Source: Candidatus Saccharimonadota bacterium (GTDB lineage Bacteria > Patescibacteriota > Patescibacteriia > 2-12-FULL-60-25). Taken from it: 32,000 nucleotides of DNA. Where the stretch lies: contig CP064964.1 of assembly GCA_016699205.1 (NCBI GenBank), positions 1,050,255-1,082,254 on the forward strand, read 5' to 3'. Positions 1-28,731 of the stretch are shown piece after piece. Each line of letters starts with the position of its first letter. The first letter of the stretch is position 1. The notes below the pieces were generated by a model, which was not told the origin of the DNA, searched no databases, and saw only the letters and a list, made by a program, of their open reading frames with translations. A program made the translations under genes and the position numbers.

Positions 1-599
1 ATGGAGAAGTTTTCTCGACCGGTGGTCGCTGTCGGAAAGCATGGGGATCATTGGATTGGGTCGGGGAGATCGATATCGACTTATAATATTACGGATGCCG
101 TGAAAGCTTCTGGTGAAGGAATTCTGACAAGAAGCGGTGGTCATGTGCAGGCTTGCGGATTTGCATTGACAGACGGTGATCAGTTGTCAGTTTTCAGTGA
201 TCGGTTAAAGAGCATGCGCGATCGATTTCTGCCGAAGAGCTGACGCCGTTGCTTTCTATCGATGCAGAAATGACGCTGGCTGCGGTTGCGATGGATGTGG
301 CGGAAGCGGTGAAGCGATTGGAACCATATGGAATGGGAAATGCGCTTCCGATTTTTTTATCCAAGCGCTGCAAGATTCTTTCTTCCGACACGATGGGTTC
401 GACGGGAAATCATTTACGGATGCAGCTTGCGGATGGTTCGGGGAGAGCGGTGAAGGCGGTTGGTTTTAAGATGGGTGGTCGAATTCTTGAAGCTTTGATG
501 GGGAAAGAGATTGATGTTGTTTATAATCTTTCGATTAATGAGTGGAATGGGCGGAGGACGGCGGAATGTCGATTGATTGATTTTCGGGCGAGCGCATAA
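1..599 (+). CDS. recJ: RecJ single-stranded-DNA exonuclease, C-terminal part (5' end outside window; apparent 1-nt frameshift near 207-210)
   Basis: ORFs 1-243 (frame 1) and 249-599 (frame 3; its listed M is a TTG inside an open frame) read together as the RecJ C-terminal region (GGHVQACGFAL, LEPYGMGNALPIF, NEWNGRRTAECRLIDF). Frame 3 is open from 201. Joining at the A-run 207-209 gives FSDRLKEHARSISAEELTPLLSIDAEM. Confidence 0.75.
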
Positions 600-1690: not shown

Positions 1691-1729
1691 CAGTCCGTAC
1701 CGACTTACTGGTACGGGCTGTTTTCGTTT
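1691..1729 (+). terminator. Rho-independent terminator after ORF 808
   Basis: 11-bp stem cagtccgtacc (1691-1701) / ggtacgggctg (1710-1720) with one G-T pair, an 8-nt loop, then ttttcgttt. Confidence 0.7.
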
Positions 1730-1761
1730 GTGATATCGATGCCAGATCGACTACAGAGCGG

Positions 1762-1791
1762 TTGACAAAATTGATGAAATATGATTAAAAT
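1762..1791 (+). promoter_or_regulatory. sigma70-type promoter TTGACA-N18-TAAAAT for ORF 1820
   Basis: TTGACA at 1762-1767 and TAAAAT at 1786-1791. It shares the string TTGACAAAAT with the 629 promoter. Confidence 0.5.
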
Positions 1792-1819
1792 ATTTTTGTC
1801 CTTTTCAAAGGAGGTGCTC

Positions 1820-2299
1820 ATGGAGCGGGTCTATCCGATCAATGTCGAATTGATCGAGTGGCCGACGTACCAGATGTATCAATCGCTGTTCTATGGCGTT
1901 TGCAGCCAGCTCGATCGTCGGGTCAATGGCGGAGTGCTTCATCCTGCAATTGCCCATATCAAGCCTGTCACAGGAAGGATTGATGTCGTTAGTGCTGTTA
2001 TCGATCCAACACGGATCGTTGCTTCAGATGATGTGATTCGTTGGGGCCGTTCGCACTCACTGCGTCCGTTGTTTCCTTGGGAGTATTACACGTTCATCGC
2101 TCAATACGTTGAGAAGATGCGTGATGTCCGGACTGTTTGCCTTGGTTTCCAGTATCGCAAACGTGGAAGTCTGTTCTTTTCCAGAACCAAGTACTTTGTT
2201 CCGCATGCGTATCAGATCGGACAAGATCTCTGTCTTGACTCGGCTGAATATGAGCATCTTTGGCTTAACGGAACCCACTTTCTTTTTACGAGTTACTGA
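1820..2299 (+). CDS. Hypothetical protein, 159 aa, no family recognised
   Basis: I prefer the internal ATG at 1820 (MERVYPINV) over the listed 1781 start because AAAGGAGG sits 6-7 nt upstream. The ORF is open to 2299. A weak terminator-like hairpin cgcgtc/gacgcg plus T5 lies at 2339-2386. Confidence 0.6.
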   Translation: MERVYPINVELIEWPTYQMYQSLFYGVCSQLDRRVNGGVLHPAIAHIKPVTGRIDVVSAVIDPTRIVASDDVIRWGRSHSLRPLFPWEYYTFIAQYVEKMRDVRTVCLGFQYRKRGSLFFSRTKYFVPHAYQIGQDLCLDSAEYEHLWLNGTHFLFTSY

Positions 2300-2384
2300 T
2301 CCAGGAAATATCGTGCTGTTTGTAACGTCGTAAGTTCTCGCGTCTCTTGTTCTCCTGAAAAAGGATTGAGCATGGGACGCGTTT

Positions 2385-2413
2385 TTGGTTATTGACGATT
2401 TTCGCGCTAGAAT
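2385..2413 (+). promoter_or_regulatory. Putative rnhA promoter TTGGTT-N17-TAGAAT ending 6 nt before the ATG (leaderless-type)
   Basis: TTGGTT at 2385-2390, a 17-nt spacer, TAGAAT at 2408-2413, ATG at 2420. No SD lies between them. Confidence 0.45.
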
Positions 2414-2419
2414 CCCGCC

Positions 2420-2827
2420 ATGCATGTCATTATCCGTACCGATGGAGGTGCTCGAGGGAATCCGGGACCGGCTGGGATCGGTGTTGTTATCGAGGACGCA
2501 AAAGGGAAGGTGTTGGAGGAACATGCCAAGTTTTTGGGTGTGAAGACCAATAATCAGGCAGAATATGAAGCCGTGATTCTGGGATTGCAGCGCGCGAAGC
2601 ATTTGAAGGCGGAGTCTGCGGAAGTTGTGGCTGATAGCGAGCTCGTGATCAAGCAGGCGAATGGCGAATATAAAGTGAAGCACGTAAATATTAAGCCGCT
2701 TTTTGCCCAAGTTCAGGATTTAGTGCGGCAGATCGGATCGGTGAAGTTTAGGCATGTGAAAAGAGCTCAGAATGAACATGCGGATGCCTTGTCGAATAAG
2801 GCGATGGACGAGGGTATCACAAGGTAA
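2420..2827 (+). CDS. rnhA: Ribonuclease HI (RNase H type 1 fold)
   Basis: 135 aa with the DEDD pattern: IRTDGGARGNPGPAG (D), NNQAEYEAV (E), VADSELV (D), NEHADALSN (D). Confidence 0.85.
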   Translation: MHVIIRTDGGARGNPGPAGIGVVIEDAKGKVLEEHAKFLGVKTNNQAEYEAVILGLQRAKHLKAESAEVVADSELVIKQANGEYKVKHVNIKPLFAQVQDLVRQIGSVKFRHVKRAQNEHADALSNKAMDEGITR

Positions 2828-2845
2828 AGATGGTATTATTGGGGT

Positions 2846-4294
2846 ATGTCGAATCCATTTGAGCTATCGCATCACGCAACATCCCCCGCGACGAAGAGTG
2901 GGCGCTTCATGGAAGTTCGATCTGCCGTCGAGAGTACCCCTGCGTTAACCAAGTCATTTGGCTCAACGGTTGAACTTCATTTCTCGGGGGCAGAGCAGCA
3001 GCGGTATATGTCGAATGCTGTATTTGGTGAGGCGCTCCAGGATAGCCTGACTCATTTGTTTGATTCGGGTTTTAGTCCATCGGTTGAAGAGCTTGATCAG
3101 AAGATGGATGAGATTGGGACTGAGTTGAATACGAGTCAGAGAAAAATTCTCACCGGCAGCATGCATCGGATGAAAGAGGCGATACAGTCCGTTAGTCCTG
3201 AGTATAGGGTCCGTTGCCAGTCGCTCGCTCAAACGTTTTACGAGGGGCTTGCGGGGTCGGTGGAAGAGCTTGGCGGATTTCCCCCGGAGATAGAAATTAC
3301 ATCACTTGGTGCCGTTATGATTCGTGTTCAGGATCTGGGCGCATGGCGACGGATCTGCGATTTTCAAGGATTTGAACCCGGGCTCGCTGGCATAAAAATT
3401 CTTTCTCCGGAAGGTCAGTCAGCCGTTTCAGATGACGACGCAAAGGATTTCGGACGCATGATCGTTCTTGCGCCTGAATATATTACACATATGGGCGGAG
3501 AATCGAGTGATGCGTTTGCGAAGCATGAACTATTCCATGATGTTTATCATCTCGCGATTGCGCCCGAGCAGACCGTTTCGTATCGAGATCCTTTTGAAAA
3601 GGAGGTCTTCATTTCGGTGAAAAATGAACTGTTGGCGTATCTTATTGGGAATTCCCGCTGGAATTCAAATTTGAACGACACAGCCGGTTCTGTGATCGTG
3701 CGTGAAACATTGGATCCTCAATTACAGAACCGCAGGCCTGAGGAGATTATCGCCTTCGCTTCTTATTCGAGCAGACTTCAGAGAGAGGGCGCGACCCCAG
3801 AACAGGCTCGGGAGCGTACAAGACAGTTTTCAAATGAGCTATTTTCTGCCATGCACGCGATTACAAAGCTTGCCCTGCTTCAGGATCGGTCGTTTGAGCA
3901 AGGCGTTTCACGTCTTTTGGTTTCGCAGTCATTTAAGGAGATTGCGTTCCATGCTTCAGAGCTCAGCGGTGAGCGCGAGGTGGTGGCTGAAGACCTTTTG
4001 AAGGATTCCGAGACTCAAGAGCCTGCTTCTTTCGCATATATCATCGAGGCTTTAAGCAATGCTGTGCGCTTTAGTATTCCCATCCAATCTCTCGAAGCTG
4101 TACTAGTTCTCGTCGAGCAAGCTATAGACCAATTTCGTGGTTATGACTCGCGAGATGTACCGCCTCAAATACTACAACTACAACGACTTGCTCAACTGGC
4201 TCGAGAAAGCGTTATGAAGCCACAACATGAAAAGAATGCCCAGGCGAACGCCCTCTCGAATAAGGCCATGGACGAGGGGCAGGGTGTGCTATAA
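2846..4294 (+). CDS. Hypothetical 482-aa protein with HExxHxxxH metallopeptidase-like motif; C-terminal 15-20 aa are a diverged copy of the RNase H C-terminus
   Basis: HELFHDVYH is encoded at 3524-3550. The tail NAQANALSNKAMDEG matches the rnhA tail NEHADALSNKAMDEG. The ORF is in the same frame as rnhA, separated by one TAA plus 6 codons. TGgTATTAT at 2831-2839 ends 6 nt before the ATG. Confidence 0.7.
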   Translation: MSNPFELSHHATSPATKSGRFMEVRSAVESTPALTKSFGSTVELHFSGAEQQRYMSNAVFGEALQDSLTHLFDSGFSPSVEELDQKMDEIGTELNTSQRKILTGSMHRMKEAIQSVSPEYRVRCQSLAQTFYEGLAGSVEELGGFPPEIEITSLGAVMIRVQDLGAWRRICDFQGFEPGLAGIKILSPEGQSAVSDDDAKDFGRMIVLAPEYITHMGGESSDAFAKHELFHDVYHLAIAPEQTVSYRDPFEKEVFISVKNELLAYLIGNSRWNSNLNDTAGSVIVRETLDPQLQNRRPEEIIAFASYSSRLQREGATPEQARERTRQFSNELFSAMHAITKLALLQDRSFEQGVSRLLVSQSFKEIAFHASELSGEREVVAEDLLKDSETQEPASFAYIIEALSNAVRFSIPIQSLEAVLVLVEQAIDQFRGYDSRDVPPQILQLQRLAQLARESVMKPQHEKNAQANALSNKAMDEGQGVL

Positions 4295-4305
4295 TCGACC
4301 TAACT

Positions 4306-5379
4306 ATGGGGCTTTTTTCTTCTGCGCCGGTTTCGACGAGTTATTTGGGTGTGGATATCGGTTTTGCCGGGATGAAACTGGTCGAACTTAAGAATGAGAA
4401 AGGACGAGCGCGACTCGTGACTTACGCGTATGCCAACGTGGCTTCCGATAGTCTTGAGAAGTCGCTTTTGAATGATATTCCAAATGCCGCCGATCTTTTG
4501 AAGAAGATGGTTGGTAAGAGTAAGGCTACGGCAAAGAAGGCTGTTGCCGCATTGCCGATTTCTTCCGTTTTTTCATCGATTCTTTCTGTGCCGACGACGA
4601 ATGATAAAGAATTGAAAGAGGCGGTGCAGCTTCAGGCAAAGAAATTGATCCCGCTTCCGTTGGAAGAGGTTTCGCTTGATACAAAAGTGATCGACAAGAC
4701 AGAGAAGGGTGCGGATGGCGGAAAACCATCGACGCGTGTTCTTGTGACAGCTGCTCCAAAGACATTGGTTTCAAAGTATGTCGAGATTTTTAAACAGGCT
4801 GGACTTGAATTGATATCGCTTGAGACGGAAGCGTTTGCGGAGATTCGCGCGCTGATCGGAAAAGATCGTTCTACGATCATGGTGGTTGATATCGGATCGC
4901 TTCGTACAAATATTATGGTGGTGGAGGGCGGAATTCCTTTCATTACGCGTTCGATCGCTACGGGAGGAAATGCCATTACGCAGACGATTGCCAAGACGCT
5001 CGGTATTCCGATGGATCAGGCGGAGAGCATGAAGCGCGATATCAAGTCGATGCAGGCTTTTGCACCGACGGGCGATCTTTCGCCGATCCTGACGGTGCTC
5101 GTAAAACCGATTTTGGATGAGATCAAATATTCTTTCACATTGTATCAGCAGCAAGCTAACGGAAGCGGGAAGCGTATCGAGAAAATTATTTTGACCGGAG
5201 GTTCAGCACTCTTGCCGCGTTTGCCGGAATTTTTGACGCAGCAGATGAATGTGAATTCGTATTTGGGAAATCCATGGGCGCGTGTTGTCTATCCGCCGGA
5301 TTTGCGACCTTTGCTTGATGAGCTCGGACCTCGTTTTGCGGTGACGATCGGTTGTGCGATGCGTGATCTTGATAACTAA
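4306..5379 (+). CDS. pilM: Type IV pilus assembly protein PilM (actin-like ATPase fold)
   Basis: 357 aa. YLGVDIGFAGMKLVEL at the N-terminus, VVDIGSLRTNIMVV, ATGGNAITQTIA and ILTGGSALLPRL match the PilM/FtsA-like pattern. Confidence 0.85.
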   Translation: MGLFSSAPVSTSYLGVDIGFAGMKLVELKNEKGRARLVTYAYANVASDSLEKSLLNDIPNAADLLKKMVGKSKATAKKAVAALPISSVFSSILSVPTTNDKELKEAVQLQAKKLIPLPLEEVSLDTKVIDKTEKGADGGKPSTRVLVTAAPKTLVSKYVEIFKQAGLELISLETEAFAEIRALIGKDRSTIMVVDIGSLRTNIMVVEGGIPFITRSIATGGNAITQTIAKTLGIPMDQAESMKRDIKSMQAFAPTGDLSPILTVLVKPILDEIKYSFTLYQQQANGSGKRIEKIILTGGSALLPRLPEFLTQQMNVNSYLGNPWARVVYPPDLRPLLDELGPRFAVTIGCAMRDLDN

Positions 5380-5381
5380 CC

Positions 5382-6197
5382 ATGAAGCGGAAATTGGCTA
5401 AAGCCCGTAGCCGCGGGCGTGTCTCGCGACGCGATTCTGCGGCGGCGGAATCTTTGCATCGCCACGGCTTATTGCCTTCGCAGGCTGTGGTTGGTACGGG
5501 TTTGCTTGAAGCGGATGAGGCTCGTGATCTTGGTTTTGAATTGCCGAACTTTAGCTCAGTGACGCCGGCTCAGGATACAAATCGATTACTGCGCATTATT
5601 TTGCATGATGCTGATGTTGTGCGCGCGCATCAGATCCGTATTTTGCCGACAGATCGAGAAGCCGATATTTTATTTGATAATGGCGGCGAACGACGCATTC
5701 CGGCTTCTGTGCTGCCTGCGCTAGCGATGCGCGCTCAGCGCATCGGTGGAAGACTTGGCTGGCATGTGCAGGTTATTCCGGCTGGAACGGGTCCTGCGCT
5801 ACAGCTGATTCGCAAACGATCAACAGGGGAACAGCATCATCCAGCCGACTGGTCTGGTGTTTTGGATGGTTTTCGCGGGAAGCCGGAGGGTTTGCTTGTG
5901 ATCATCGCGCCTGATGCGTATGTGTCGAGGCATTTTCTTGCCAAGTATCCACTGGTTGAATCTGTTGATGATTGGCGCGAGATGAAAGGCGATAAGCCTG
6001 TTTTATATGATGCGGATCGTGATGAGGGGCGTGAGCTGGCTTTGCATGCGGCGATTTCTGGTCGGATCACCATCGCTTTGATGGCTCGTTCTGCGAATGA
6101 CTGGTGGAGTCAGGCTTCGGAAGCGGGTATTCCTGTACGCGTGGTGCGCTCGCGCTTGACGACACTTGGCCCGGCATGGGAATCATTCCAGATATGA
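5382..6197 (+). CDS. PilT/PilB (GspE-family) ATPase-like protein, truncated and catalytically degenerate
   Basis: 271 aa, colinear with the secretion-ATPase core. LLRIILHDADVVRAHQIRILP corresponds to the ASDIHxEP region. EGLLVIIAPDAYVSRHFL replaces GLxLVTGPTGSGKSTTL (Walker A lost). DRDEGRELALHAAISGRITIALMARSAND replaces MRDxETxxxAxxAAxTGHLVxxTLHT (His box lost). Most of the segment between Walker A and Walker B is missing. Confidence 0.6.
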   Translation: MKRKLAKARSRGRVSRRDSAAAESLHRHGLLPSQAVVGTGLLEADEARDLGFELPNFSSVTPAQDTNRLLRIILHDADVVRAHQIRILPTDREADILFDNGGERRIPASVLPALAMRAQRIGGRLGWHVQVIPAGTGPALQLIRKRSTGEQHHPADWSGVLDGFRGKPEGLLVIIAPDAYVSRHFLAKYPLVESVDDWREMKGDKPVLYDADRDEGRELALHAAISGRITIALMARSANDWWSQASEAGIPVRVVRSRLTTLGPAWESFQI

Positions 6198-6703
6198 AGC
6201 GCACCGTGCTCAGCGTCGAGGATGATGCTGTCTTTGCGGATATTCTTGCCAAGAATTTGGAATCGGGTGGTTTTGCCGTGATGAAATCGAGTAACGGGGA
6301 AGATGGTTTTAAACGTGCCGTAAATGACAAACCGGATGCGATTTTGCTTGATATCGGTTTACCAAGAAAAGATGGATTTGAATTGTTGGAAGCGCTCAAG
6401 ACCACGCCTGAGACCTCTTCGATTCCGGTTTTCATGCTGTCGCGCCTTTCATCACGCGAGGATGTTGATAAATGTTTCTCATTGGGGTGTGCTGATTATA
6501 TGATTAAGTCACAACATCATCCGGAAGATGTGGTTCGCCGGTTGAATCGACATTTTGGATTGGAAGATGGTTTTGCGCGCTGGGAGGTTTTGGTGGCCTT
6601 GGGCGTTGTTTTGCTTGCCGCGAGTCTGTTGTGGTGGCAGCTGGGTCATCCAAAGGCTACGCCAGAGCCACAGGCGCCTGGCGTCGAACTTCAGTCGCCG
6701 TAG
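6194..6703 (+). CDS. Response-regulator receiver domain protein with C-terminal transmembrane helix
   Basis: Start ATG 6194 overlaps the upstream stop (ATGA). Receiver residues are intact: SVEDD, ILLDIGLPRKDG (phospho-acceptor Asp), FMLS, DYMIKS. The C-terminus has the hydrophobic helix WEVLVALGVVLLAASLLWW. There is no output domain. Confidence 0.8.
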   Translation: MKRTVLSVEDDAVFADILAKNLESGGFAVMKSSNGEDGFKRAVNDKPDAILLDIGLPRKDGFELLEALKTTPETSSIPVFMLSRLSSREDVDKCFSLGCADYMIKSQHHPEDVVRRLNRHFGLEDGFARWEVLVALGVVLLAASLLWWQLGHPKATPEPQAPGVELQSP

Positions 6704-6719
6704 TGGTATAATCGGATAT

Positions 6720-7178
6720 ATGACGTTTCGACGTGGATTTACGGTGCTTGAAGCATTGATCGTGCTCGCGGTGTTTGGTTTGCTGGCGACGCTCGCGGTT
6801 TTATCGCTCAATAGCGCGCGTGCGAGTTTGCGTGATGCGCAGCGACTTTCTGATGTGAGCGTCGTGCGTTCCGCTCTGAGTCAGTACTGGTTGGAGAACG
6901 CAACGTATCCGCAATCGGCCGGAATCGATCTTGGAATGCCGGGAGCAAATGCAGAGAAATTGTCTGCAGCCGGATTTGTGGCGAGTGCCGATCCGACGCA
7001 GCCGGTTTATTTGACGCGTATTCCGACGGGACCAAAAGTAAATGAATATTATCGCTACCGTGCGGGTCCGAATGGTTACTCGATCCGATTCCAGACGGAA
7101 ACCAGAACAGACTTGGGTCCGGCAAATGTTTACTACGCACATGCGACCGGAATCGATCTTGAGGACGTAGAAAAGTAA
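6720..7178 (+). CDS. Type IV pilin / pseudopilin (prepilin-type N-terminal cleavage-methylation domain)
   Basis: I prefer the internal ATG at 6720: MTFRRG/FTVLEALIVLAVFGLLATLAV has Gly at -1, Phe at +1 and Glu at +5. TGgTATAAT at 6704-6712 ends 7 nt before this ATG. Confidence 0.8.
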   Translation: MTFRRGFTVLEALIVLAVFGLLATLAVLSLNSARASLRDAQRLSDVSVVRSALSQYWLENATYPQSAGIDLGMPGANAEKLSAAGFVASADPTQPVYLTRIPTGPKVNEYYRYRAGPNGYSIRFQTETRTDLGPANVYYAHATGIDLEDVEK

Positions 7179-7203
7179 TGCTCACGCAACATAGTCACAC
7201 ATC

Positions 7204-9660
<2,457 letters not shown>

Positions 9661-15561: not shown

Positions 15562-15606
15562 ATAGATAGACGGCCCCTTTCATAACTGCTATTCTTCTAC
15601 AAATTT

Positions 15607-21367: not shown

Positions 21368-22374
21368 TTAATCTCCTGTCATCTGTTTCTTTAGAAGCGT
21401 CACATTTGGAACCGGCCAAGGATCGATCTTGTGACGTCTGGCCAAGGCGACGCTTGTCGAGGCTCCCAGGGCAATAGCGGTCCACGCTTCTTGCAGACGG
21501 TTTTTGCCGATCACATCGATGGTGATGGCACGAATGCCGTTTTTCTGCAGGATTTCTGCCGTTAGCTTGATGCGTTTGTGATTGCGCGGATGATAATGCT
21601 CGGATTGAAAGAGAACAGCGACGAGCTGTTTTTTGACGGAGTGGGGAAATGTAATACCTTCCAAAAAATGATGGTCGAGTTCTGGAATCACTTGTGCTGC
21701 GGAAAGCTGTTTTCCATTTTCGTTTATTTGATTATTGAATACATGCGCCGCGCCAACGAGATGCTCGGCCGACATGAGTAAGACAAAAGATTTTTCCAGA
21801 TGTCGAGCAAGATCAAAAGCCAAGCCCTGATCCTGGTTTTCAATAAGCTTCGCGACTTCATTGATTTTCCGTTCATCGATTTTTATGATTCCGGTTTTGG
21901 CGAGGATTCCGGCGATGCCAATCGTCATATAGCCGATGGCCATGCGCGGTTGATTGGAGGGATTCTCAACGGGATCGATCACGAGTGTTGGGAATTTGTG
22001 TTTTTGGCTAGCGCAAGTAACTCGCCGCCATTGGTCATGACGATGATGCGGGCTTTGCGGCGGATGGCTTCACGGGCTGCGGAAAGCGTCTCTTCTGTTG
22101 TGCCGGAATAGCTAGAAAGAATGACGAGCGTGTCGCGGCCTACGTGGCTCGGGAGACGATAGTCATTGCTGATTTCAAAAGGGATTGAGATCTCATCACG
22201 GAAGACGGACTGAATCACATGCGCGCCCAAGGTTGATCCGCCCATGCCAGAGACAACGATAGAAGCCGGCTTGTGATGACTTGTAGGAATGTTAAGGCTT
22301 GAGACTTGGCGCCAGGCATCGCGTAGCTGCGCGCCGAGACGCAAATCGTCGGATAAAAGAATAGGAGCCTTCAT
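21368..22374 (-). CDS. Bifunctional phosphoglucose/phosphomannose isomerase (SIS domain; apparent 1-nt frameshift at T5 run 22001-22005)
   Basis: ORF 21979-22416 (real start MKAPILL at 22374) has SGMGGSTLGA and LSSYSGTTEETL. ORF 21368-21982 is the C-terminal PGI/PMI half. One extra A in gccaaaaacac gives ELLALAKKHKFPTLVIDPVENPS. Confidence 0.8.
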
Positions 22375-22385
22375 GGCTCCTATTC
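22351..22385 (-). terminator. Terminator hairpin of the DUF1761 gene that also contains the SD and start codon of the PGI/PMI gene
   Basis: On the minus strand: gaataggagcc (stem) atgaa (loop) ggctcctattc (stem), then ttttatcc. The ATG at 22374 is in the loop and AGGAG is in the 5' arm. Confidence 0.6.
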
Positions 22386-22406
22386 TAGCACAAATAATTA
22401 GATTTT

Positions 22407-22832
22407 TTAGCGCCAAACAGCGAGGATCACTCCCATGATGATGAGTGAGACCAAGCGGTATCCGGTGTTGATGAAGTAGAGCTTCCAGGGTTTATTGCCC
22501 CAGAGCTGCTCATCCATTTGCACAGGCGCAAAAAATCCGAGCCAGGTCCAGAAACCAGACATGACGCCGCCGACCCAACCAAATGTCTGCGTATAGGTCA
22601 TCGCAAATTCTGTTGTAAATGATAGGACGTAGGCTAAAACAAGCGAACCAATGCTCATCAGGGCATAGGTCTTATTCATGCCTTTCATCGCCTCCTTGCT
22701 CATTTTGGATGGATCAATACCCATTAGTTTCATCCAAGGTTTGCCAAATAAAGGGCCGTACCAAAGGAACCCGAGAACGACGGTGGAAATGGCGGCGACG
22801 AGTATAGCGAGGTAGTTGGGGGTAAAAGTCAT
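22407..22832 (-). CDS. DUF1761-family membrane protein
   Basis: 141 aa, four predicted TM helices. LGFLWYGPLFGKPWMKLMG at the N-terminus is typical of DUF1761. Confidence 0.75.
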   Translation of the reverse strand: MTFTPNYLAILVAAISTVVLGFLWYGPLFGKPWMKLMGIDPSKMSKEAMKGMNKTYALMSIGSLVLAYVLSFTTEFAMTYTQTFGWVGGVMSGFWTWLGFFAPVQMDEQLWGNKPWKLYFINTGYRLVSLIIMGVILAVWR

Positions 22833-22847
22833 ATGGACAGCATTCTA

Positions 22848-24575
22848 TCAGCTTTTACGTTTTCCGTGCATCAACATGTCGACAGCTTTGTCGAGTGTAC
22901 CGGCAGCCGTCAGTTCGCCGTTGTTTACAAAGAAGATGCCGTCAGCTTTTTCGATCGTGTTCAAGCGATGGGCGATGATGACCTTTGTTGTCGATCCTGG
23001 AAGCTGATCGAGGGCTTCTTGGAGCAATTGCTCCGTGACGGTATCGATGTTGGCGGTGGCTTCATCGAGAATCAGGAGTTCTGGCTTGCGCAAGACGGCA
23101 CGCATGAAAGCGATGAGCTGCTTTTGACCCAAGCTGATGGAGTCGGCGCCGGAGACGGGCGTGTCGACGCCTTTTTCAAAGCGGGCGAGGAGACGCTCAA
23201 GGCCCATCGAGTTGATCGTGTCGATTTTTCTTGGTGGCTTGCTGCGGCAAAATCAGGATTGGCGTAGAAGATGTTTTCCAGGACGGTGCCCGTGAACAAG
23301 AATGGTTCTTGCAAGATGAAGCCGATTTTTTGGTGCGATCGCTTTCAGGGTAGGAGCGCAGATCGCGGCCATCGAGCAGGATGGTGCCGGAGGTTGGATC
23401 GTAGAGACGCGCCATGAGCGAGGCAGTTGTGGTTTTGCCGCCGCCTGTCGGACCGACGAGTGCGTAGGTTTTGCCGCGTTCCAAATCGATGTTGATGTTG
23501 CGCAAGACATCCGGACGCTCTGGATAGCCAAAGTGTACGCCTTGGAATTGTACAAGGGCTGGATTGGCGGCCTTTTCGCCTTCAATCGTCGGCAAGTCCA
23601 TTGTTTCATCCATGATTTCGAGACGCGATCCCAGGCGGCTAATGCGAGCTGGAAGGAGTTCCAGAGCATGGCGATTTGGCGGAGCGGACCGTAGAAGCGC
23701 TCGACATAGATCAAGAAACTCAAGAGTAAGCCAAGCGTAAGGCTTTGTTGGGAGACGAGCAGGATGCCGTAGCCGAGAACGATCAGAATCGCCAAGTTGG
23801 AGAAAAGATCGTAAATCGGGGAGTAGAGGGCGCTGGCGATGCCGGCGCGTGTTGCTGCTTTGAAGTTGATTTTGTTGGCGATGGCAAAGCGGTCGCGGAA
23901 GAAGTCGCGGCGATCAAATGCGACAACGACTTTAAAGTGTTCCAAGCTTTCTTGAATTTCTGCGCTCAAACCGCCGGTTGCACGCAAACTTTCTGCATTG
24001 CGCTTTTAACCCAGCCGGAAGTGGCTTGCGTAAAGAGATAGAGTGCTCCGGCCGGGACTAGCGCGGCGAGGCCAAGATGCCAGTTCAATGAGAGCAGGAA
24101 GATACCGGAACCGACAATCATCACGATGCTCATCGTGAAACGCACCAAGGTTTCGAGAAGAATTGGTTGAGTTTGTCCGTGTCGTTGTTGATGCGGGAAA
24201 TCAAATCGCCAGCTTTATTTCGGTTGAAGAAGGCGATTGGTAGCGATTGAGTTTGGCAAAATCATGTTGCGCAAACGGAAGAGCATGCGCTGACCTACAC
24301 GGCCCATGAGCTGCATCTGCCAATAGCTTGTGCCGAGGGCGATCAAGAATGCGACGAGAAGCGCTGCGACGGTTGTAAAGATGCCTGGATAGTTTGCGGT
24401 GCGTACATAAGCATCGATGGCGTGACCAAAATGTAAGGCACGCTCAAGTTGATGCCGGAAGCGATGAAGATCGTAAGCGCCGTCAATGCCAAAGGACCAA
24501 TCTCCGGTTTGAGATAGGGGAGAAGCTTGCGGACACCGACGAGCGCGGATGTCTTTTTGCGGGCTTATCGTTCAT
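22848..24575 (-). pseudogene. ABC exporter (fused permease + ATPase), disrupted by at least 9 single-base frame disruptions
   Basis: Fragments 22848-23207, 23072-23314, 23197-23613, 23253-23987, 23966-24148 and unlisted pieces up to ATG 24575 can be stitched into one about 575-aa ABCB-type protein (MNDKPAKKTSALVGVRKLLPYLKPEIG ... GPTGGGKTT ... ISLGQKQ ... LLILDEATA ... IIAHRL). Shift sites (+ coordinates): 24554-24558, ~24426, 24258-24261, ~24240, ~24152, ~24001, ~23620, 23326-23331, 23225-23229. Confidence 0.85.
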
Positions 24576-27965: not shown

Positions 27966-28731
27966 ATGCCATATACGGTTAATCAATTAGCGAAGCTCGC
28001 CAGTATCAGCGTGCGCACGCTGCATCACTACGACCAAGTCGGGTTGCTTAAGCCTGCCCTGCTTCGCAAAAATGGTTATCGTGAATATGGGGAGACGGAG
28101 CTGCTTAAGCTTCAGCAAATTCTGTTCTTTCGCGAGTTGGATTTTCCGTTGGAGGATATTAAACGGATTATGTCCTCGCCGAGTTTTGATACACGGCAGG
28201 CGCTGCTGGATCATCGGAATATGATCGAGCTGAAAAAGAAACGTCTTTCCGGATTAATCAAAGCGATCGATAAAACATTAATTCAACTAGAAAAAGAAAC
28301 CTATGGACGAGCAAGACTTGAAGGAGACGTATGACACTTTTGGTGAAGATACCGTCAAGGAGTACGCCGATGAGGTGAAGCAGCGTTGGGGGAATACGGA
28401 AGCGTACAAGCAGTCGATGGAGCGCTATAGCAAAATGACTAAGGCGGACATGGAGGAATATAAGAAAGGTGCGGACATCTTCATGAAGAAGGCGGCGGAA
28501 GTCTCTGAAAAGGGTGCGCTTAGCCCGGAGTTTCAAGAGATGATTGACCAACACTTCAAATCGTTAAGCGCTTGGTATGAGCCGAACTTTGAGATGTATC
28601 GTGGATTGGCCAAGATGTATGTAGAGGATCCGTGGTTTGAGGCTTATTATGAGAAGTATAAGCCGGGGTTGGCGAAAGTGTTTAGTGAGGGGATGATCCA
28701 TTACGCGGATAAGAATGAGCCGAATAAGTAA
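27966..28731 (+). CDS. MerR-family regulator with TipAS-type C-terminal domain (split by a frame disruption near 28291-28302)
   Basis: ORF 27966-28334 is the MerR HTH plus coiled coil (YTVNQLAKLASISVRTLHHYDQVGLLKP). ORF 28303-28731 is a TipAS-like domain (FGEDTVKEYADEVKQRWGNTEAYKQS...). In TipAL/Mta-type proteins these are one chain. The second frame has a TAG at 28288-28290, so the shift lies in the A-rich run just after it. Confidence 0.8.

Follow-up and report, generated by a model that had tools for sequence, protein, structure and literature searches.

Elements that integrate into the ends of genes are the closest described parallels to the locus that we report here. The element e14 occupies icd in E. 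coli K-12, where icdC is the displaced end of the gene and excision recombines both copies (PMC13626634). In streptococci, the 3' ends of fda, rpsI and rpmG are occupied by ICESt3-type elements, a type of integrative and conjugative element (ICE), and by cis-mobilizable elements (CIMEs), which hold 1.2-13 kb of cargo between attL and attR without recombination or conjugation genes (PMC7563491). The tycheposons of Prochlorococcus target tRNA genes and have one host copy and one element copy of an attachment motif (bioRxiv 10.1101/2020.12.28.424599). Here we analyze a 32,000-nucleotide (nt) stretch of contig CP064964.1 (the window; all positions are counted from its first letter), in which a 482-codon open reading frame (ORF), ORF482, lies between the RNase HI gene rnhA and pilM. 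By sequence comparison with related loci (designated by L-numbers), we consider it likely that ORF482 is a strain-variable, single-gene insertion made by reciprocal recombination within a 23-26-nt core in the end of rnhA.

As with e14 (and phage 21) in icd, the insertion lies in the last part of a housekeeping gene and appears to have carried its own, diverged gene end, so that the target stays intact with few substitutions and the original end is displaced to the far junction. However, e14 is 15 kb long and has its own integrase and excisionase, whereas the unit described here is 1.46 kb long with one gene that is not a recombinase; icdC is a silent pseudogene, whereas the displaced end of rnhA provides the cargo gene with its stop and its ~20 final codons; and the host here is a candidate-phyla-radiation bacterium. 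The locus resembles CIMEs in having att-flanked cargo at the 3' end of a housekeeping gene and no recombination or transfer genes, but CIMEs are by definition decay products of ICEs or integrative mobilizable elements and usually stand in tandem with a partner whose integrase uses their att sites, and no such partner was seen at the rnhA site in the loci examined. It resembles tycheposons in that plug-in cargo occurs in streamlined genomes without classical mobile elements, but tycheposons have a tyrosine recombinase, often replication genes, and tRNA targets, whereas here the target is the end of a protein gene and no recombinase accompanies it. Like integron cassettes, the unit is a single ORF of ~1-1.5 kb, movable and variably present at a fixed site; unlike them, it has no IntI/attI/Pc platform (the upstream gene is rnhA, and no integrase was found in the window), it has an apparent promoter of its own, and its integration duplicates part of a gene's coding end.

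The locus thus has the direct repeat, the rebuilt target, the displaced end and the empty site of elements that integrate at gene 3' ends, without the integrase: genes for an integrase or for conjugation were not found at the site or close to it, whether in the window, among the genes tabulated for L045-L053 and L175-L177 or by tblastn of L002-L044. What sets the rnhA case apart is this lack of an integrase and of a partner, its small size, the host phylum and the use of the displaced end as the C-terminus and stop of the cargo. To our knowledge, few mobile elements are known in the small, packed genomes of Patescibacteria (candidate-phyla-radiation bacteria), and the route by which they gain genes is unclear. 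Here, a gene gain is resolved to the base pair by empty sites, by carriers of three haplotypes and by an att arm of foreign origin; one gene would move between strains through 23-26 nt of the end of a housekeeping gene without a recombinase of its own.

Copies of the rnhA end flank a 1,464-nt unit

To place the window among its relatives, we used PilM as a query with one genome per species and obtained 43 loci, mostly from genomes named Candidatus Uhrbacteria or Patescibacteria group bacterium; relatives closer than these were obtained from 90%-identity protein clusters. In most of the 43 genomes recJ, rnhA and pilM are contiguous, with pilM directly 3' of rnhA. A first-pass annotation, made from the letters of the window alone, had proposed that the 3' end of rnhA is duplicated on both sides of an inserted cassette. 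Gap-free alignment of positions 2769-2814 with 4233-4278 gives 38 of 46 identical nt (83%) at a spacing of 1,464 nt, which reproduces both the spacing given in that annotation and its counts for the slightly shorter segments 2771-2814 and 4235-4278 (36 of 44 positions, and 22 of 23 at the end). Its placement of rnhA and ORF482 (Table 1), with an 18-nt spacer and a shared frame, was likewise as claimed.

The repeat was highly significant in both shuffle tests. Its local alignment score of 52 compares with 21.3 ± 2.1 (maximum 31) in 300 shuffles, about 14 standard deviations above, and none of 5,000 shuffles restricted to the junctions attained the score of the repeat. The 20-mer AATAAGGCNATGGACGAGGG is found at just the two repeat sites in the window, where 0 occurrences are expected. 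The last 23 nt of the two copies have a single difference, at 2803/4267, and the perfect repeat extends over 26 nt in the L046 haplotype, compared with 23 nt with one mismatch in the window. As the occupied structure is present in five independent assemblies (the window, L046, L047, L048/L049 and L175), it is not an assembly artefact.

One part of the earlier description was not confirmed, namely that the similarity continues further upstream across a 3-codon gap. Against a profile made from the RNase H sequences of 36 Uhrbacteria loci, ORF482 residues 380-462 score no more than 2.4 bits, which is not significant, and the true upstream extension is ~9 nt, CGC/CAT-GAA-AAG (R/H-E-K), which fits the rnhA of other clades and not that of the window. 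We also rejected a longer RNase H-like region in ORF482, which a tblastn alignment of residues 389-482 with rnhA 42-135 had indicated, as its score once the tail is removed is again just 2.4 bits. We likewise set aside translation past the rnhA stop codon into ORF482 (read-through): we saw no feature in support of it, and a shared frame needs just an 18-nt spacer divisible by three.

Uninterrupted loci, for which the first-pass annotation had proposed a check in related genomes, are present. In L045, L176, L177 and L003, rnhA ends in ...NEHADALSNKAMDEGQGVL and a stop codon and runs straight into pilM; the distance from this QGVL-stop end to pilM is 11 nt in L045, L176 and L177, and the rnhA bodies of L176/L177 are identical to that of the window at 345 of 349 positions. 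Two blastn alignments join the window to L045 (window 1691-2814 to L045 3229-4395, and window 4233-7995 to L045 4350-8087). These alignments overlap by 46 nt in L045, and both window copies therefore correspond to one 46-nt segment of the empty site. We write the empty site (attB) as B-O-B' and the window as B-O-P' ... P-O-B', where O is the core.

Resident and foreign sequence in each repeat copy

Comparison with the empty site of the same sub-lineage (L176/L177) divides each copy sharply at the core. Copy 1 has mismatches at 1/27 positions to the left of the core, 0/23 within it and 30/40 to its right, such that attL equals attB at 49/50 positions up to the core and the switch from resident to foreign sequence falls exactly after 2814. 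For copy 2 the corresponding values are 9-11/27, 0-1/23 and 0/40. The left arm of copy 2 differs to this extent from every resident arm, compared with 0-1/63 mismatches for the core and downstream sequence (Fisher p 3e-6 to 7e-6), and Fisher p values for the mosaic junctions overall are about 1e-6 to 1e-14. The B' arm is identical to the empty sites of L045, L176 and L177. What remains of the resident gene in copy 2 is the core, the four codons QGVL and the stop, and the last 13 codons of ORF482 (S-N-K-A-M-D-E-G-Q-G-V-L plus stop) are the resident rnhA end in its original position. From these alignments, we conclude that each repeat copy is a mosaic of resident and foreign sequence. Together, the empty sites and the mosaic junctions back the earlier proposal that a cassette was inserted into the 3' end of rnhA and that it supplied or restored a replacement end.

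The foreign part of copy 2, the P arm, is nearly alike in the cassettes of the window, L175 and L046 type, with differences confined to 4225-4228, in genomes whose flanks differ by ~8%. In carriers other than the window it reads R-E-K-N, as in the R-R-E-K-N of other Uhrbacteria clades, whereas the resident sequence is K-R-A-Q-N. Its best match in all loci searched is the rnhA tail of L007, which is identical at 26/33 positions and lies at the orthologous position. For the P' arm, a search of all loci gave no match downstream of an rnhA; with the rnhA-pilM intergenic region of L005/L035 it shares a TAAAGAT 7-mer and the promoter box, and nothing more.

The last catalytic Asp of RNase HI sits in a C-terminal motif, here N-x-x-A-D, which reads NEHAD in copy 1, with the Asp present, and NAQAN in copy 2. 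An unrelated RNase H in L170 ends in REENAQADAMSNRAIDERL and a stop codon, and the NAQAD variant therefore occurs naturally. Copy 2 had been described as a relic that now serves as the C-terminus of ORF482. Its C-terminal role stands, but the Asn lies in the imported arm and not in a decayed resident tail. The position of this residue indicates that the Asn replacing the catalytic Asp is part of a relic captured from another lineage and not a product of decay.

The same alignments bear on whether the repeat could instead reflect duplicative insertion, in which a staggered break or a replication slip would have duplicated ~46-60 nt of the target and copy 2 would then have drifted. Such a duplication would account for both copies corresponding to one 46-nt segment of the empty site, and selection could hold the right half of copy 2, which overlaps the promoter region of pilM. 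However, drift does not predict the sharp, reciprocal pattern in which the mismatches of copy 2 lie to the left of the core and those of copy 1 to its right, or a diverged arm that is nearly alike in carriers with an 8% flank difference. This arm is closer to the rnhA of other clades (the REKN... type of L007), which random decay would not yield, and one of its differences is a double synonymous change (TTG to CTC). Terminal inverted repeats are absent, and we know of no transposase that makes 46-nt duplications. We regard duplication followed by decay as extremely unlikely, and it is already largely refuted by these data. A transposon or insertion sequence was rejected as a class for the unit, as it has no terminal inverted repeats, no transposase domain and a repeat that is 46 nt long and mosaic.

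Another way to obtain the cargo would be homology-facilitated illegitimate recombination, in which linear DNA of a strain with full-length ORF482 behind rnhA is imported by transformation, with rnhA as a homologous anchor and an illegitimate junction joining ORF482 codon 462 to the recipient rnhA tail. The native C-terminus of the cargo is indeed cut exactly at this junction, and the rnhA-pilM and recJ-rnhA slots hold different genes in different relatives, which points to frequent import at the locus. An illegitimate junction of this kind predicts that all of copy 2 is of recipient type, whereas the real break is at the core, ~30 nt 3' of the junction between ORF482 and rnhA-like sequence, and it leaves the swapped core polymorphism described below unexplained. 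We therefore find this route quite unlikely in general, and the mosaic refutes it for the lineage of the window. An event of this type may well be the origin of the first ORF482/rnhA-tail fusion in the donor clade; the simplest guess would be an illegitimate joining beside an rnhA-ORF482 locus that truncated ORF482.

A tract of ~120 nt that runs from the core to 90 nt into pilM (window 4259-4397) shows no difference, or a single-base one, in comparisons with L045, L046 and L176. Neighbouring sequence differs by 5-8% among the same strains, and synonymous sites are conserved in the tract too; a recent sweep, transfer of the tract by recombination or constraint at the nucleotide level may account for this.

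Table 1. Features of the rnhA-ORF482-pilM locus in the window
Feature	Positions	Strand	Description
rnhA	2420..2827	+	135-amino-acid (aa) RNase HI, RVT_3 type; end now ...NEHADALSNKAMDEG-ITR, then stop
Repeat copy 1 (attL-like)	2769..2814	+	rnhA arm (resident) 2769-2791, then core 2792-2814
Core O in copy 1 (TCGAATAAGGCGATGGACGAGGG)	2792..2814	+	putative crossover segment
Inserted unit	2815..4278	+	1,464 nt, measured between the ends of the two core copies
P' arm, imported	2815..2845	+	rnhA codons ITR, stop TAA 2825-2827, extended -10-like box TGGTATTAT 2831-2839
ORF482, cargo gene	2846..4294	+	residues 1-462 family sequence, 463-482 rnhA-derived
P arm, imported	4224..4255	+	foreign rnhA-like 3' fragment, encodes (H/R)EKNAQANAL
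Repeat copy 2 (attR-like)	4233..4278	+	foreign arm 4233-4255 plus core 4256-4278
B' arm, resident	4279..4305	+	rnhA codons QGVL, TAA 4292-4294, pilM extended -10 box TGCTATAAT 4287-4295
pilM	4306..5379	+	Pfam PilM_2, E 6e-49; promoter overlaps ancestral rnhA end

Evidence for movement of the unit between lineages

To compare the history of the cassette with that of its flanks, we measured synonymous divergence (dS) between the window and L046. The cassette has a dS of 0.082, compared with 0.453 for rnhA and 0.405 for pilM, and is thus ~fivefold less diverged at synonymous sites than the flanks; the density of mismatches falls exactly at the core of copy 1. Each carrier lineage has closer relatives that are free of the cassette: the window has L176, L177 and L051, and L046 has L045. 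The low dS of the cassette and these cassette-free closer relatives together indicate horizontal spread after the lineages split.

Within the window's own lineage, L175 differs from the window at 3/351 positions of rnhA and 20/1,441 of the cassette. At the core polymorphism 2803/4267, the window has GGCG in attL and GGCC in attR (G and C), whereas L175 has GGCC in attL and GGCG in attR (C and G). Reciprocal exchange within the core would leave such a swap, and its origin from two point mutations is very unlikely. Possible routes to it are excision and re-integration at another crossover point, independent integrations, or segregation of a heteroduplex. From these patterns, we infer that the unit has moved between lineages and has probably been excised and re-integrated; the swapped core polymorphism, together with the patchy presence of the unit within sub-lineages, is indirect support for excision to a circle.

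The same distribution bears on whether the unit was once part of a prophage, genomic island or other larger integrative element that encoded a tyrosine integrase and was later deleted down to one cargo gene. An att-like architecture, a foreign target-gene end and a rebuilt target are hallmarks of such elements (e14, ICESt3-type elements and CIMEs), and the cargo ORF is truncated where the att arm joins. Yet there is no longer version and no integrase in the five occupied assemblies or ~60 related loci, nothing related was present in viral contigs (no ORF482 relative and no P-O sequence), and the 1,464-nt unit occurs in lineages with fivefold more diverged flanks, which argues that it is the short form that spreads. 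We consider a remnant of this kind unlikely.

Proposed mechanism of insertion

In our preferred reading, reciprocal recombination in the rnhA core, the crossover would lie within O, the stretch of the rnhA end that encodes ...L-S-N-K-A-M-D-E-G. A diverged rnhA 3' end (P-O-P') from another Uhrbacteria clade would have come in with the cargo, and the exchange would turn B-O-B' of the Candidatus Uhrbacteria chromosome into B-O-P'-cargo-P-O-B'. The substrate may have been a circular form of the cassette, or a tandem or linear form flanked by repeats, and the P-O-P' junction of a circle or tandem is predicted as ...GCCCAGGCGAACGCCCTCTCSAATAAGGCSATGGACGAGGGWATCACRAGGTAAAGATGG. A 1,464-nt circle would need one crossover, and linear DNA from an occupied, diverged locus would need one per core copy, with identical products. 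The exchange could be carried out by host homologous recombination at the sole near-identical stretch or by a site-specific recombinase acting in trans; a crossover on either side of 2803 would fit homologous recombination, or a recombinase with an overlap region that includes this base. After insertion, the cargo ORF would read through the foreign rnhA relic and the core and end at the resident rnhA stop. The predicted donor locus would have an rnhA ending in ...REKNAQ(A)DALSNKAMDEGITR and a stop codon, followed by a full-length ORF482 homologue. We rejected the reconstructed P-O-P' junction as an integron attC hairpin (z = +1.06), as 173 of 200 shuffles fold at least as well.

Several points weigh against reciprocal recombination in the core. 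Scans of the cassette, of the 38 other ORFs over the 32 kb of the window and of the genes beside the site in related loci gave no recombinase domain, in agreement with the first-pass annotation. Neither an excised circle nor a P-O-P' junction was seen in the data searched, which were assemblies only. A core of 23-26 nt is at the lower limit for RecA-type recombination. Linear import from an occupied, diverged locus, with one crossover per core copy, would give an identical product. Where the transferred tract ends on its right side cannot be located, as 120 nt past the core are identical even in empty strains. Finally, the donor locus was not found: clustered-protein searches gave no close ORF482 homologue outside the carriers, and a metagenome scan with an 18-mer of the P arm gave chance matches and no donor among the matches listed.

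A broader idea, which we hold to be decidedly improbable, is that candidate-phyla-radiation bacteria shuffle single genes as cassettes that have no recombinase or use one in trans, and whose attachment sites are short, conserved gene ends that overlap the promoter of the next gene. If this were so, each cassette would bear a spare upstream-gene end and a promoter, both neighbours would survive insertion, and the recJ-tail relic described below, the differing cargo of sister strains in the two slots and the swapped polymorphism would be faces of one system. In a bolder variant, the HExxH protein encoded by ORF482 may itself promote the exchange.

The rebuilt rnhA and the cargo protein

The rnhA product matches Pfam RVT_3 (E 2e-23, 83 bits) and RNase_H (E 7e-13, 49 bits) over residues 3-128, both above the cut-off, and NCBIfam RNase HI models as well. 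The whole RNase H domain is kept, including the catalytic Asp, and the ratio of nonsynonymous to synonymous divergence (dN/dS) between the window and L046 is 0.014. The end residues have changed from QGVL to ITR: the gene is resident up to ...MDEG, and solely the last three codons (ITR) and the stop are imported, as are the 18 nt that follow. Among the 15 members listed for rnhA at 90% identity, 7 end in QGVL, with lengths of 136-140 aa and a body of the window type (...KRAQNEHADALSNKAMDEG); among these listed members, an ITR end is confined to strains that carry ORF482.

To define the family of the cargo protein, we searched 5.8 billion clustered proteins and 1.84 billion representatives. The family is small, with 42 further proteins (P0002-P0043; 41 are 50%-identity representatives), mostly of 420-530 aa. 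Family homology spans ORF482 residues 16-462 and ends where the rnhA-like tail starts. The native C-terminus is missing after residue 462, and the tail ...EKNAQANALSNKAMDEG, or any RNase H-like end, is present in 0/42 of the other members and so is not a family trait, consistent with its derivation from rnhA. The chimeric C-terminus of ORF482 is a former RNase H helix and a clean natural case of gene-end capture. The dN/dS of ORF482 between the window and L046 is 0.22, indicating that it is maintained by purifying selection.

Alignment of 33 members shows H227, E228, H231, E261, Q98 and E365 to be invariant. Every full-length member has HExxH, E261 is the invariant Glu downstream of it, and the family has the motif AQSFKEIAY-LS-I. 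The pattern HExxH...E is a signature of gluzincin-type metal sites. The AlphaFold (AF2) model of ORF482 has a mean predicted local distance difference test (pLDDT) value of 88 and a predicted template modeling (pTM) score of 0.89, with the rnhA-derived tail as a low-confidence terminal helix. Foldseek comparison of the model with PDB and BFVD gave no significant relative (collagenase G had an E value of just 1.2) and no fold match to any recombinase, and the sequence had no match in Pfam (peptidase families included), PDB profiles, NCBIfam, PHROGs or PADLOC. Judging from the conserved HExxH...E residues, the cargo is most likely a zinc-dependent hydrolase and not the mobility enzyme. This uncharacterised family, with a confident model and no known fold relative, merits structural work and an assay.

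Relatives of ORF482 in L001 and in L027, the latter next to ligA, are not beside rnhA and are not flanked by duplicated gene ends; around the ligA-adjacent member in L027 we found no tail duplication. The G+C content of the cassette, 0.50, is the same as that of the genome and is uninformative on foreign origin.

Promoter-like boxes around the insertion

The pattern TGNTATWMT has four matches in the window, all on the + strand (2831-2839, 4287-4295, 6704-6712 and 15587-15595), and these lie 6-11 nt 5' of the starts of ORF482, pilM, a pilin gene and a DsbA-like gene, respectively; the first is 6 nt from the ORF482 ATG. A similar box, usually TGNTATNNT (TGnTATAMT type), is found ~10 nt 5' of pilM in most relatives. 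This placement suggests transcripts that may be leaderless or nearly so. No canonical -35/-10 pairs or terminators were found around the cassette. The pilM box TATAAT contains the TAA that was the ancestral rnhA stop, and the core occupies the place expected for a -35 region. Insertion at this site would keep rnhA and pilM both working only if the shared segment is duplicated, as is seen, and the P' arm would supply a second promoter-like box (2831-2839) for the cargo. Packed genomes could tolerate insertion in this way, with the rnhA end and pilM promoter segment duplicated and both neighbours kept working.

Contents of the neighbouring slots and other observations

The rnhA-pilM junction is an insertion hot spot with contents that vary by strain. 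In L050/L051 (GCA_963851785.1; 3908-4371) it holds a 113-aa gene of the bAvd/23S-rRNA-IVS type on the minus strand with inverted repeats GCATAGAGCATGGAGCATAGAGC, and rnhA ends in QGV and a stop codon. In L053 (3899-4047) and L002 (7849-8001), long hairpins or a 48-aa ORF lie between rnhA and pilM, and the slot of more distant relatives (including L017, L023, L043, L031, L032, L034 and L037) holds ORFs of 430-470 aa or ~640 aa. We found no tail duplication in the inserts of L050/L051, L053, L002 or these distant relatives, nor at the other occupied rnhA-pilM slots that we inspected (L014, L017, L022, L023, L025, L027, L031, L032, L034, L037 and L043).

A second, weaker example of this arrangement lies in the recJ-rnhA slot (window 571-591 with 2390-2409; insert 600-2419). 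The recJ stop overlaps the rnhA start in L002, L005 and L053, whereas ~1.8 kb separates the two genes in the window, with ORF287 (808-1671) and ORF172 (1781-2299) in the insert. A recJ-tail relic, ATTGA-CGATTTTCGCGCTAG, lies just 5' of the rnhA ATG and matches the real tail, ATTGATTGATTTTCGGGCGAG, at 17/21 positions (constrained shuffle p = 0.004); it is also present in L045 and L051 and absent in L046. The part of the slot that holds ORF172 (window 1736-2415) is shared by L045, L051 and L176 and missing from L046-L048. A conserved terminator-like hairpin, CAGTCCGTACCGACTTACTGGTACGGGCTGTTTTCGT, closes different small ORFs in the slot (window 1691-1735, L045 3229-3275) and occurs twice in L046 (2736-2816 and 3461-3505), after two paralogous ORFs of ~155 aa.

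Several genes in the window appear split or truncated. Its recJ is divided between two ORFs (1-243 and 249-599), with a run of A one base shorter at ~205-210 (GGTTAAAAGAG, compared with GGTTAAAGAG in the closest relative, L176, where recJ is intact and encodes 573 aa), which is either a homopolymer sequencing error or a real frameshift. ORFs with a MerR domain (27966-28334) and a TipAS domain (28303-28731) overlap by 32 nt in different frames and look like a split gene, and a phosphoglucose-isomerase-like gene is found as two ORFs, with SIS and bact-PGI_C domains (21368-21982 and 21979-22416). A 243-aa ORF (23253-23987) holds the C-terminal part of an ATP-binding cassette (ABC) membrane domain alone and stands beside a full ABC transporter. 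Outside the window, pilM of L045 (4423-5495) is called as two overlapping genes of 205 and 166 aa, and over its first 600 nt the dN relative to the window is inflated, a sign that the L045 assembly may contain a frameshift.

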